DNA of 64,000 nt from Escherichia coli (GTDB lineage Bacteria; Pseudomonadota; Gammaproteobacteria; Enterobacterales; Enterobacteriaceae): NCBI RefSeq assembly GCF_003334785.1, contig NZ_QOWV01000001.1; one strand, 5' to 3'. Positions within the stretch are counted from its first letter, which is position 1. Each line of letters starts with the position of its first letter. Position numbers and translations under genes: made by a program. Under the pieces are notes generated by a model. It did no database searches. It saw nothing but the letters and a program-made list of their open reading frames with translations, and was not told the DNA's origin. Positions 4,094 through 8,769 of the stretch are shown piece by piece.

Positions 4094-5092
<999 letters not shown>

Positions 5093-5422
5093 TTTCTTGC
5101 GTTATTTTCGGCACCTTTTATGTAGCGAAGGTGCCGGAATATATTCTCTTTTGTTACTTATTTCTATACCGTGCACAATATTTTTATCCCTCATATTTAT
5201 AGGGTAAATTACCTGTAAAGTAGTGTCTAATTACCCGCCTCGCAAACTCCAGTTTTCAAATATCTATTTCAGGTCAAAAGATTGAATTATTCACTGGAGA
5301 CGATTCGTAAATTCGCTGGATTTTTGACTAAAGTTTCTTTAGGATTTGTCTCATCGTATGATTAATTACACCAATCGTTCAACGTCTTGCTGATAAGTGA
5401 TGGCGATTATATGAGGTTAGCA

Positions 5423-5551
5423 ATGCCTTCTGGAAATCAGGAACCCCGCCGCGATCCTGAATTAAAACGTAAAGCCTGGCTGGCGGTTTTTCTTGGTTCT
5501 GCACTTTTCTGGGTGGTTGTCGCACTGCTGATTTGGAAAGTGTGGGGATAA
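5423..5551 (+). CDS. ymiA: Small membrane protein YmiA (alternative in-frame start at 5411)
   Basis: Not in track (<60 aa). ATG at 5423 has a GAGG Shine-Dalgarno 6 nt upstream; encodes MPSGNQEPRRDPELKRKAWLAVFLGSALFWVVVALLIWKVWG with one predicted TM helix; stop at 5549-5551. Confidence 0.6.
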   Translation: MPSGNQEPRRDPELKRKAWLAVFLGSALFWVVVALLIWKVWG

Positions 5552-5553
5552 CT

Positions 5554-5721
5554 ATGGTCGGTCAGGAGCAACTGGAGTCGTCACCATTATGCCAGCATAG
5601 TGACAATGAAACAGAAACGAAACGGGAATGTTCCGTCGTTATTCCAGACGACTGGCAACTAACATCGCAGCAGCAAGCCTTTATAGAACTGTTTGCTGAA
5701 GATGATCAGCCGAAACAATAA
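5554..5721 (+). CDS. yciX: Small protein YciX
   Basis: 55-codon ORF MVGQEQLESSPLCQHSDNETETKRECSVVIPDDWQLTSQQQAFIELFAEDDQPKQ; GGGGA SD just upstream; start lies 2 nt after the ymiA stop, consistent with translational coupling. Confidence 0.6.
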   Translation: MVGQEQLESSPLCQHSDNETETKRECSVVIPDDWQLTSQQQAFIELFAEDDQPKQ

Positions 5722-5834
5722 TTATCATCATTCTTATTACCCATTTTTAATGAATTAAAGGGCTTTTAATACACCGCAGCAATAACAGCTTGAGTTATCT
5801 CAACACAAAATAATAACCGTTAAGGGTGTAGCCT

Positions 5835-5930
5835 ATGATCAACACAAATATGAAATATTGGTCCTGGATGGGCGCGTTTTCTCTGTCGATGCTCTTCTGG
5901 GCCGAACTCCTCTGGATCATTACTCACTGA
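5835..5930 (+). CDS. 31-aa hydrophobic small protein (possibly the annotated small protein ymiC; unverified)
   Basis: ATG at 5835 preceded by AAGGGTG; encodes MINTNMKYWSWMGAFSLSMLFWAELLWIITH; stop TGA 5928-5930; followed immediately by a terminator hairpin. Track shows only an out-of-frame ORF at 5858..6040. Confidence 0.45.
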   Translation: MINTNMKYWSWMGAFSLSMLFWAELLWIITH

Positions 5931-5936
5931 TCCTTG

Positions 5937-5966
5937 ACCCCGCTGCGGCGGGGTTGTCATTTGCTT
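5937..5966 (+). terminator. Intrinsic terminator after the 31-aa ORF, upstream of acnA
   Basis: accccgc-tgcg-gcggggt hairpin followed by tgtcatttgcttt. Confidence 0.55.
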
Positions 5967-6093
5967 TGCCACAAGGTTTCTCCTCTTTTATCAATTTGGG
6001 TTGTTATCAAATCGTTACGCGATGTTTGTGTTATCTTTAATATTCACCCTGAAGAGAATCAGGGCTTCGCAACCCTGTCATTAAGGAGGAGCT

Positions 6094-8769
6094 ATGTCGT
6101 CAACCCTACGAGAAGCCAGTAAGGACACGTTGCAGGCCAAAGATAAAACTTACCACTACTACAGCCTGCCGCTTGCTGCTAAATCACTGGGCGATATCAC
6201 CCGTCTACCCAAGTCACTCAAAGTTTTGCTCGAAAACCTGCTGCGCTGGCAGGATGGTAACTCGGTTACCGAAGAGGATATCCACGCGCTGGCAGGATGG
6301 CTGAAAAATGCCCATGCTGACCGTGAAATTGCCTACCGCCCGGCAAGGGTGCTGATGCAGGACTTTACCGGCGTACCTGCCGTTGTTGATCTGGCGGCAA
6401 TGCGCGAAGCGGTTAAACGCCTCGGCGGCGATACTGCAAAGGTTAACCCGCTCTCACCGGTCGACCTGGTCATTGACCACTCGGTGACCGTCGATCGTTT
6501 TGGTGATGATGAGGCATTTGAAGAAAACGTACGCCTGGAAATGGAGCGCAACCACGAACGTTATGTGTTCCTGAAATGGGGAAAGCAAGCGTTCAGTCGG
6601 TTTAGCGTCGTGCCGCCAGGCACAGGCATTTGCCATCAGGTTAACCTCGAATATCTCGGCAAAGCAGTGTGGAGTGAATTGCAGGACGGTGAATGGATTG
6701 CTTATCCGGATACACTCGTTGGTACTGACTCGCACACCACCATGATCAACGGCCTTGGCGTGCTGGGGTGGGGCGTTGGTGGGATCGAAGCAGAAGCCGC
6801 AATGTTAGGCCAGCCGGTTTCCATGCTTATCCCGGATGTAGTGGGCTTCAAACTTACCGGAAAATTACGTGAAGGTATTACCGCCACAGACCTGGTTCTC
6901 ACTGTTACCCAAATGCTGCGCAAACATGGCGTGGTGGGGAAATTCGTCGAATTTTATGGTGATGGTCTGGATTCACTACCGTTGGCGGATCGCGCCACCA
7001 TTGCCAATATGTCGCCAGAATATGGTGCCACCTGTGGCTTCTTCCCAATCGATGCTGTAACCCTCGATTACATGCGTTTAAGCGGGCGCAGCGAAGATCA
7101 GGTCGAGTTGGTCGAAAAATATGCCAAAGCGCAGGGCATGTGGCGTAACCCGGGCGATGAACCAATTTTTACCAGTACGTTAGAACTGGATATGAATGAC
7201 GTTGAAGCGAGCCTGGCAGGGCCTAAACGCCCACAGGATCGCGTTGCACTGCCCGATGTACCAAAAGCATTTGCCGCCAGTAACGAACTGGAAGTGAATG
7301 CCACGCATAAAGATCGCCAGCCGGTCGATTATGTTATGAACGGACATCAGTATCAGTTACCTGATGGCGCTGTGGTCATTGCTGCGATAACCTCGTGCAC
7401 CAACACCTCTAACCCAAGTGTGCTGATGGCCGCAGGCTTGCTGGCGAAAAAAGCCGTAACTCTGGGCCTCAAGCGGCAACCATGGGTCAAAGCGTCGCTG
7501 GCACCGGGTTCGAAAGTCGTTTCTGATTATCTGGCAAAAGCGAAACTGACACCGTATCTCGACGAACTGGGGTTTAACCTTGTGGGATACGGTTGTACCA
7601 CCTGTATTGGTAACTCTGGGCCGCTGCCCGATCCTATCGAAACGGCAATCAAAAAAGGCGATTTAACCGTCGGTGCGGTGCTGTCCGGCAACCGTAACTT
7701 TGAAGGCCGTATCCATCCGCTGGTTAAAACTAACTGGCTGGCCTCGCCGCCGCTGGTGGTTGCCTATGCGCTGGCGGGAAATATGAATATCAACCTGGCT
7801 TCTGAGCCTATCGGCCATGATCGCAAAGGCGATCCGGTTTATCTGAAAGATATCTGGCCATCGGCACAAGAAATTGCCCGTGCGGTAGAACAAGTCTCCA
7901 CAGAAATGTTCCGCAAAGAGTACGCAGAAGTTTTTGAAGGCACAGCAGAGTGGAAGGGAATTAACGTCACACGATCCGATACCTACGGTTGGCAGGAGGA
8001 CTCAACCTATATTCGCTTATCGCCTTTCTTTGATGAAATGCAGGCAACACCAGCACCAGTGGAAGATATTCACGGTGCGCGGATCCTCGCAATGCTGGGG
8101 GATTCAGTCACCACTGACCATATCTCTCCGGCGGGCAGTATTAAGCCCGACAGCCCAGCGGGTCGATATCTACAAGGTCGGGGTGTTGAGCGAAAAGACT
8201 TTAACTCCTACGGTTCGCGGCGTGGTAACCATGAAGTGATGATGCGCGGCACCTTCGCCAATATTCGCATCCGTAATGAAATGGTGCCTGGCGTTGAAGG
8301 GGGGATGACGCGGCATTTACCTGACAGCGACGTAGTCTCTATTTATGATGCTGCGATGCGCTATAAGCAGGAGCAAACGCCGCTGGCGGTGATTGCCGGG
8401 AAAGAGTATGGATCAGGCTCCAGTCGTGACTGGGCGGCAAAAGGTCCGCGTCTGCTTGGTATTCGTGTGGTGATTGCCGAATCGTTTGAACGAATTCACC
8501 GTTCGAATTTAATTGGCATGGGCATCCTGCCGCTGGAATTTCCGCAAGGCGTAACGCGTAAAACGTTAGGGCTAACCGGGGAAGAGAAGATTGATATTGG
8601 CGATCTGCAAAACCTACAACCCGGCGCGACGGTTCCGGTGACGCTTACGCGCGCGGATGGTAGCCAGGAAGTCGTACCCTGCCGTTGTCGTATCGACACC
8701 GCGACGGAGTTGACCTACTACCAGAACGACGGCATTTTGCATTATGTCATTCGTAATATGTTGAAGTAA
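6094..8769 (+). CDS. acnA: Aconitate hydratase A
   Basis: 891-aa [33 protein letters not shown]...; strong SD (taaggagg) upstream; aconitase Fe-S cluster cysteines present. Confidence 0.97.

Follow-up and report, generated by a model that had tools for sequence, protein, structure and literature searches.

ymiA and yciX, adjoining small-protein genes between cysB and acnA of Escherichia coli: a conserved junction and probable joint action of the products

The small genes between cysB and acnA

The stretch of DNA considered here (the window; 64,000 nucleotides of contig NZ_QOWV01000001.1) is E. coli K-12-like DNA, and between cysB and acnA it carries two abutting small open reading frames (ORFs), ymiA and yciX, the relationship of which is the subject of this work. 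A gap of approximately 320 nt separates the end of cysB from the first of them, and a third small ORF, ymiC, lies between the pair and acnA (Table 1). An earlier note, made from the letters of the window, had placed a ymiA-yciX tandem between these two flanking genes and had proposed comparison with the annotated genes as a check; RefSeq annotates exactly this at the same coordinates, and the RefSeq features of K-12 BW2952 coincide exactly with the window coordinates of ymiA, yciX and ymiC. The window pair is, in other words, the known and annotated small-protein genes ymiA-yciX of E. coli, and the identity of the pair, the expression of YmiA, its regulation and its start site in K-12 are all already known. 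New here are the comparative evidence for yciX as a genuine gene under selection, the conservation of the ymiA-yciX junction across Enterobacteriaceae, and the finding that YciX homologues outside Escherichia have gone unrecognised in annotation.

The ymiA frame offers three in-frame starts (TTG 5387, ATG 5411 and ATG 5423) and closes with the TAA at 5549-5551, giving 54, 46 or 42 codons respectively. The two letters CT at 5552-5553 separate this stop from the yciX ATG at 5554, and yciX ends with the TAA at 5719-5721 after 55 codons. The transmembrane (TM) peptide of 42-46 codons, followed 2 nt on by a 55-codon ORF, that the earlier note had described is confirmed both in the letters and by RefSeq. 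The same holds for its remark that the two ORFs were under-length or mis-started in the mechanical ORF list, which carries them as TTG-start versions at 5387-5551 (54 aa) and 5533-5721 (62 aa). Each ORF had also been credited with a Shine-Dalgarno (SD) element, and such elements are present but moderate, with anti-SD duplex energies of -4.6 (5411), -6.3 (5423) and -5.5 (5554) kcal/mol against a window background of -2.2 +/- 2.4.

The arrangement is essentially a fixed feature of the species. In 5,422 of 5,426 complete E. coli genomes the region 5093-6093 was found by megablast at an identity of at least 95%, the match covering at least 80% of the query in 5,383 genomes; yciX was annotated in all 30 E. 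coli genomes sampled, and the layout of an ST131 genome is identical to that of K-12 BW2952. At the protein level, the window YmiA scores 96.8 bits against the NCBIfam model NF000536 (cut-off 30), with residues 5-46 aligned to model positions 1-42, and Pfam PF22868 is recorded on YmiA homologues. It belongs to this family by score, by its one TM helix following a short basic N-terminal tail, and by its position between cysB and acnA as in other genera (the ymiA match is flanked by both in 73 of 82 loci); it differs in that the K-12 product has four extra N-terminal residues (MRLA) outside the 42-position model. YmiC is likewise matched by its own model, NF041484, at 66.3 bits against a cut-off of 42.

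Table 1. Features of the cysB-acnA interval and its flanks, in window coordinates.
Feature	Coordinates	Strand	Remarks
cysB	4118-5092		Flank of the small-ORF region
Conserved non-coding region upstream of ymiA	5217-5410	+	~190 nt; putative promoter/regulatory region and 5' leader
Alternative ymiA starts	TTG 5387; ATG 5423	+	TTG 5387, 54 aa, old annotation; ATG 5423, 42 aa, sole start conserved in all genera
ymiA coding sequence	5411-5551	+	46 aa (MRLAMPSG...KVWG); single-pass inner-membrane small protein; RefSeq 'YmiA family putative membrane protein'
GAGG SD element	5413-5416	+	6-nt spacer to ATG 5423; overlaps codons 1-2 of the 46-aa form
GGGGA SD-like element for yciX	5544-5548	+	From the last two ymiA sense codons (TGG GGA; codons 45-46); 6-nt spacer to ATG 5554; -5.5 kcal/mol
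yciX coding sequence	5554-5721	+	55 aa; soluble small protein; RefSeq 'protein YciX', WP_001297116.1
YciX conserved C-terminal core	5644-5703	+	Residues 31-50; K-12 PDDWQLTSQQQAFIELFAED; consensus P-x-S-W-K-L-T-P-Q-Q-Q-A-F-I-D-x-F-A-E-D
ymiC	5835-5930	+	31-aa small membrane protein; third gene of the ymiA-yciX transcription unit; RefSeq
Intrinsic-terminator-like hairpin and T-rich tract	5935-5956	+	Consensus scan; located where the STnc180 match reaches its 3' end
acnA	6094-8769		Flank of the small-ORF region

A conserved junction between two genes under selection

For comparison across genera, loci were fetched with YmiA as the anchor, one per species (80, with the YmiA alignment trimmed to the 42-aa sequences), and 76 of the loci analysed gave a readable ymiA-yciX junction. 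In 47 of these, 2 nt lie between the ymiA stop and the yciX start; the spacing is 1 nt in 15, 0 nt in four and 3-4 nt in another four, and the genes overlap by 1-4 nt (ATGA-type or 1-nt) in five; a gap of 0-4 nt or an overlap of 1-4 nt is thus found in 75 of the 76, the one outlier (L082) being an apparent assembly frameshift. The same 75 junctions carry TGGGG, or TGGAG in Cedecea-like loci, before the ymiA stop, with the frameshifted L082 again the exception. In the Cedecea-like loci the terminal glycine of YmiA has become serine, and the codons used (TGGAGC) keep or improve the SD. Unlike this junction, the spacer between yciX and ymiC varies by tens of nucleotides. Conservation of the reading frames in related genomes, which the earlier note had put forward as a second check, is accordingly seen for the pair and its junction across approximately 80 species of Enterobacteriaceae. 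The conserved arrangement exceeds chance, and the conservation of the junction across the family is consistent with co-translation of the two genes.

A junction this tight might also be read as a scar within a single gene, with ymiA and yciX the halves of one frameshifted ORF, whether as a pseudogene or through programmed frameshifting or readthrough. In a published study using tetracycline-inhibited ribosome profiling (TetRP), the ymiA ORF is labelled 'yciX (ymiA)', ECK1270 (ECK4433) (PMC4909307), a matter of older naming, and fused YmiA-YciX ORFs of 91-97 aa do occur in public protein sets. We consider this reading extremely improbable. All 76 junctions have a ymiA stop codon followed by ATG or GTG, and those with a gap of 0 nt, which are in frame, also keep the TAA. 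Furthermore, the frame of yciX relative to ymiA depends on the lineage (gaps of 0, 1, 2, 3 and 4 nt), and as such neither a single recently frameshifted gene nor a conserved frameshift site is possible. Deleting 17 nt between TTTTCT repeats in ymiA (~5488-5510) recreates the commonest fusion (P0004; 97 aa, with 37 member sequences in public metagenome protein sets): the TM segment is lost and the frame shifts into that of yciX. This fusion is therefore derived, whether as a natural deletion allele or as a recurrent error of assembly.

Selection was examined through the ratio of non-synonymous to synonymous differences (pN/pS), obtained from protein-guided codon alignments of 74 distinct loci. 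These ratios are qualitative, given that synonymous sites are saturated, that the pairs are not independent and that the alignments were built in frame: ymiA gives 0.20 in the annotated frame against 1.5-1.6 in the shifted frames, yciX as a whole 0.49 against 1.1-1.2, and the C-terminal half of yciX, an ungapped block, 0.32 against 1.3-1.9, with the N-terminal half of yciX at 0.70. Among five Escherichia lineages, for which synonymous sites are unsaturated, ymiA gives 0.08 and yciX 0.41 in frame. Identity by codon position (0.85/0.89/0.58 in ymiA and 0.75/0.81/0.50 in the C-terminal half of yciX) is lowest at the third position in both genes. The contrast between frames is clear, and purifying selection appears to act on both genes in the annotated frame only. 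Since the low ratios are confined to that frame, ymiA and yciX are best regarded as real genes.

The reality of yciX deserves separate consideration, the rival reading being that of a spurious or very young ORF, peculiar to Escherichia and open by chance beside a genuine ymiA. A word-indexed protein search returned YciX relatives from Escherichia and Shigella only, where YmiA relatives came from many genera, and no NCBIfam or Pfam match was obtained for YciX. The poorly conserved N-terminal half and the absence of a published protein detection from the literature we could find point in the same direction. The notion of an Escherichia-only orphan was nonetheless ruled out by searches directed at the syntenic loci and by an exhaustive profile search. 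Permissive tblastn placed a YciX-like frame immediately 3' of ymiA in almost all of the fetched loci, and a hidden Markov model (HMM) built from 40 diverse sequences found a YciX-like ORF adjoining the 3' end of ymiA in 80 of 82 loci, three Pantoea-like genomes among them, or in 79 of 80 loci of other Enterobacteriaceae and Pantoea-like genomes. The exhaustive search, over 1.84 billion representatives, yielded 71 YciX clusters, nearly all of 50-60 aa; those cluster representatives that were looked up and bore a name were called 'hypothetical protein' (Enterobacter, Cronobacter, Mangrovibacter, Pantoea, Izhakiella). In addition, six C-terminal residues are invariant, purifying selection is seen in the annotated frame alone, and the ORF stays open though its frame relative to ymiA varies by lineage. 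The spurious-ORF reading is in our estimation largely refuted already and very unlikely; yciX would appear, from comparative sequence data, to be a genuine gene under selection with a defined C-terminal helix motif.

The two loci in which the HMM detected no YciX-like ORF are those of Salmonella enterica subsp. arizonae and of one Sodalis. In the former (L040, CCUG 6322T, 2629-2815) both ymiA and ymiC are kept and the spacer between them is shorter; yciX appears to have been lost in this lineage. S. enterica subsp. diarizonae (L036) does have yciX, which there begins with a GTG immediately behind the TAA.

The protein that emerges from these alignments varies in its N-terminal half, and its C-terminal core, (I/V)P-x-SWKLT-x-QQQAFID-x-FAEDE-x-KKQ, is sharply conserved, with P31, W34, L36, Q40, F43 and I44 invariant in the 40 diverse sequences; the window YciX carries the motif P-x-x-W-x-L-x(3)-Q-x(2)-F-I-x(2)-F. 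An AlphaFold2 prediction from the same 40-sequence alignment leaves the N-terminal half disordered and contains a single 11-residue helix (38-48), with a mean predicted local distance difference test score (pLDDT) of 92 for residues 31-40 and 86 for residues 41-50. YciX is not hydrophobic (Kyte-Doolittle maximum 0.13). Nor did homology point to a function: no significant match came from Pfam or PADLOC, the PHROGs matches had E values of at least 0.11, and the best hit of a profile search of the PDB had E = 2. The earlier note had called this second ORF acidic, which stands for Escherichia (net charge -9 in K-12) and does not extend to the family, in which net charge has a median of +2 and the N-terminal part is basic; acidity is an Escherichia trait. 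On this evidence YciX would be a separate cytoplasmic protein of 55 residues, its N-terminal half disordered and fast-evolving and its functional part presumably the conserved C-terminal helix (SW-L-QQ-AFI-F). The window protein is identical in coordinates and sequence to the RefSeq entry 'protein YciX'/'YciX family protein'. Database practice, however, names YciX only in Escherichia/Shigella and provides no HMM, although the ORF stands directly behind ymiA in 80 of the 82 loci. As the constant downstream companion of ymiA, both in Enterobacteriaceae and in some Pantoea-like genomes, YciX would justify a family model and a better annotation of these 'hypothetical proteins'.

YmiA, coupling and the case for joint action

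Considerably more is on record for YmiA. The protein has a single stretch of strong hydrophobicity (Kyte-Doolittle maximum of 2.54 over 19 residues, from residue 24), a net charge of +4, and a short basic tail (RRDPELKRK) followed by a single hydrophobic helix ending in W-x-x-W-G, with residues K19, R20, K21 and W23 invariant. It is expected to be, in its K-12 form of 46 residues, an inner-membrane protein of one TM helix, with the basic N-terminal tail on the cytoplasmic side (N-in). A fusion of green fluorescent protein to YmiA locates to the cell periphery, that is, the membrane (PMC11429745), and the 46-aa protein has been quantified by targeted mass spectrometry (parallel reaction monitoring, PRM) at approximately 1,000-3,000 copies per cell (PMC12529367). 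Work on magnesium starvation treats ymiA-yciX-ymiC as an operon and reports low-Mg2+ induction and a PhoQ-dependent reporter of the region upstream of ymiA; by Ribo-RET under Mg2+ starvation, YmiA and YmiC were among 17 induced small proteins (PMC11429745). In Salmonella, one transcriptome study counts yciX among the genes of the Cpx regulon (PMC6374596).

In its low-Mg2+, PhoQ-dependent induction and its membrane localisation YmiA resembles MgrB and MgtS, small membrane proteins induced by PhoQ/PhoP (PMC11429745). It shares no sequence similarity with either, and the toxicity of its overexpression is PhoQ-independent; MgrB inhibits PhoQ, whereas YmiA has no known target (PMC11429745). Small ORFs that abut or overlap in pairs within one operon, as with ymiA-yciX, also occur in the same stimulon, namely mgtS-mgtT and yriA-yriB (PMC11429745); those pairs overlap out of frame, and ymiA and yciX are instead separated by 2 nt.

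With these observations in hand, we favour, at a probability of about 0.85, the reading that ymiA and yciX are the known pair, carried with ymiC on one transcript, that they encode a membrane protein (YmiA) and a soluble helix protein (YciX), that yciX would be reached by re-initiation or a local hand-off, and that the two products probably act together. A ribosome ending ymiA at the TAA would find itself 2 nt from the yciX ATG and positioned on the GGGGA element, and it is reasonable to postulate that yciX is then translated through re-initiation or a local hand-off, so that the two proteins are co-produced. The 0-4 nt gap or ATGA overlap, together with a downstream SD lying within the upstream coding sequence, is the arrangement of classical translationally coupled cistrons, and as coupled the earlier note had described the pair. 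It differs from the classical case in that no sequestering hairpin was found here, and the dependence of yciX on ymiA is in this instance only inferred, an inference strengthened by the conserved junction and by the SD within the 3' end of ymiA. Masking of the downstream start by RNA structure is not obligatory for coupling by re-initiation; as no gating structure was found, coupling, if real, would proceed by proximity and re-initiation. That the two genes have stayed this tightly linked across Enterobacteriaceae makes joint action probable, for example through binding of the YciX helix to YmiA or to a shared membrane target. Co-production is reasonably supported, and a partnership of membrane anchor and soluble helix protein in an envelope-stress response is speculative.

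A number of observations weigh against this reading, in addition to the qualitative nature of the selection ratios. RNA structure at the ymiA/yciX junction was not found, the z-score being 0.12 against shuffled sequences, with 0 consensus pairs in 21 species. Having its own SD, yciX could initiate independently. When YciX was co-folded with YmiA as a single chain (YciX-(G4S)4-YmiA, with a paired 40-species alignment), the predicted template modelling score (pTM) was 0.26 and the pLDDT of the YciX core fell from ~90 to 74, albeit in a crude linker fusion rather than a multimer model, with contacts that could not be inspected. The pairing is not absolute, in that the arizonae locus has ymiA without yciX. 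In the searchable literature we found neither direct detection nor characterisation of the YciX protein, and deletion of ymiA had no reported phenotype (PMC11429745).

Much of this would equally suit two co-transcribed cistrons that are translated independently, the tight spacing being a matter of genome compaction and joint action not being required. For such an account speak the SD and ATG of yciX itself, the lack of a conserved occluding structure, the negative co-fold and the lineage that keeps ymiA without yciX. It does not readily explain why the junction should be fixed in 75 of 76 loci while the N-terminal coding sequence of yciX and the yciX-ymiC spacer drift freely, nor why the glycine-to-serine change of the Cedecea-like loci should nonetheless come with codons that keep or improve the SD; we take independent translation to be a rather unlikely alternative.

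Overexpression of YmiA produces a lag of 8-10 h and elongated cells, independently of PhoQ (PMC11429745), and such an effect in a tight two-gene unit invites the thought of a toxin-antidote-like pair, a small membrane toxin with its neutralising partner. However, five other membrane small proteins gave similar defects on overexpression in the same study (PMC11429745), and the effect looks generic. No PADLOC or PHROG family match was obtained, and the locus lies on the chromosome in a syntenic, vertically inherited position bounded by cysB and acnA, all of which renders a toxin-antidote arrangement highly improbable. To return to re-initiation and joint action, a stronger form of that reading would have YmiA and YciX as an obligate two-part module across Enterobacteriaceae, a membrane anchor with a soluble partner whose active element would be the conserved C-terminal helix, made in fixed proportion by means of the 0-4 nt junction and serving a PhoQ/PhoP (and, per the Salmonella report, Cpx) envelope-stress response, with the uniformly conserved leader of approximately 36 nt possibly exerting translational control; this we offer tentatively and hold to be doubtful. 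In any case, the conserved junction argues for studying YmiA together with YciX, and the published deletion and overexpression work on ymiA as a single gene may have missed a phenotype for that reason.

The start of ymiA, its upstream region and the end of the transcript

The start of ymiA in K-12 has been addressed by experiment. TetRP gives the main 'yciX (ymiA)' initiation signal at MRLAMP, and a tryptic peptide from proteomics, LAMPSGNQEPR, is incompatible with a start at MPSG, i.e. 5423 (PMC4909307); Onc112 profiling led to the same conclusion, MRLAMP/5411 (bioRxiv 10.1101/511675). On this published evidence we accept 5411 as the K-12 start. The earlier note had suggested start-site profiling as a check, and the published data furnish it for ymiA, with signal at 5411 in K-12; for YciX we found no published detection of the protein.

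The comparative record adds a qualification. ATG 5423 with GAGG 6 nt upstream is kept in 72 of 73 loci, the GAGG columns being invariant in the alignment, whereas at the position of 5411 the 73 loci have ATG in 47 cases, GTG in six and a non-start codon (ACG, AAG, GCG or GAG) in the other 20. In 63 loci there is an ATG 33 nt further 5' than 5423, its counterpart in Escherichia being CTG, and no locus lacks both upstream ATGs. It might be argued, then, that the 42-aa form is what ymiA really produces and that 5411 is not the main start, the more so as the NCBIfam model begins at residue 5, the duplex energy is best at 5423 and the sequence upstream of 5423 is free of coding-type conservation. 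The two profiling methods nevertheless put the main signal at 5411 in K-12, the tryptic peptide cannot come from a 5423 start, the PRM work takes YmiA as 46 aa, and both starts may be used; a 42-aa product as the true one is, to our minds, unlikely. The core protein conserved throughout the family nevertheless begins at 5423, also the first position of the NCBIfam model. With 5411 variable between lineages and 5423 universal, the distinction is relevant to tagging and to cross-species comparison.

The 36 nt before 5423 are approximately 90% conserved, with codon-position identities of 0.88/0.90/0.91 and a pN/pS of 0.85, and look like an element conserved at the nucleotide level rather than a coding segment. 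That the 11-12 codons preceding 5423, which read MISDVDCMRLA in other genera, might encode a conserved N-terminal extension was considered and rejected on the same uniform codon-position conservation and pN/pS. More broadly, the region 5217-5410 is conserved across genera above the synonymous/third positions of ymiA and has no 3-nt periodicity (66 distinct loci). Conserved blocks within or adjoining it are TTCAA-N21-TTGAA (5257-5287), GTAAATTCGCTGGATTTTTGACTAAAGTTTCTTTAGGATTTGTCTCA (5308-5354) and the 36 nt just described. An Rfam scan of 5000-6200 gave STnc180, over ymiC, as the only significant match, and no family on 5217-5410.

With regard to the promoter, the direct repeat at 5332-5348 (AGTTTC-TTTAG-GATTTG) has 4 mismatches to the PhoP box (T/G)GTTTA-N5-(T/G)GTTTA; the site is strongly conserved, and its form in other genera, AGTTTA-TTTAG-GATTTA, has 2 mismatches. 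At no more than 3 mismatches the PhoP-box pattern occurs 164 times in the window where 126 occurrences would be expected, a marginal enrichment, and it is not discriminating in E. coli. On the + strand upstream of ymiA, a scan for consensus promoters turned up no sigma-70-like site, a result that fits an activator-dependent promoter and proves nothing. The cysB/ymiA region has elsewhere been flagged as a 'promoter island' (PMC3661553).

At the other end of the unit, the consensus scan found no terminator-like sites on the + strand between ymiA and ymiC, and the hairpin at 5935-5956 is the probable end of the ymiA-yciX-ymiC transcript. The gene pair would accordingly form the first two cistrons of a single message shared with ymiC, which lies within the yciX 3' untranslated region and is without a promoter of its own. 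A terminator-like hairpin and T-run on the minus strand (5616-5637), inside yciX, has no minus-strand gene nearby and is probably due to chance.

The enterobacterial small-RNA family STnc180 of Rfam (RF02079) matches 5762-5964 on the + strand with 198 bits (gathering score 50). As the match spans the whole ymiC coding sequence and ends at the hairpin, the STnc180 'sRNA' is to be seen as a segment of mRNA encoding the 31-aa membrane protein, or else as a dual-function RNA. The distal acnA promoter, P1, has been mapped approximately 400 nt upstream of the acnA ATG; this would presumably fall at ~5687, in the 3' end of yciX, in which case ymiC/STnc180 would lie in a long acnA leader.

Two minor observations concern the neighbourhood. 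In 6 of the 30 E. coli rows sampled, an IS1 element lies between ymiC and acnA, at the 3' end of the former; in E. coli EC931 (L083, 1135-1832) its position is equivalent to ~5927-5935 of the window. The insertion leaves a ymiC coding sequence of 99 nt instead of 96 nt, with a changed C-terminus, and parts the operon terminator region from acnA. Lastly, a locus labelled Chryseobacterium sp. 18061 (L034) has the typical cysB-ymiA-yciX-ymiC-acnA arrangement of Enterobacteriaceae and a CysB 94% identical to that of E. coli, and the assembly is probably mislabelled or contaminated.

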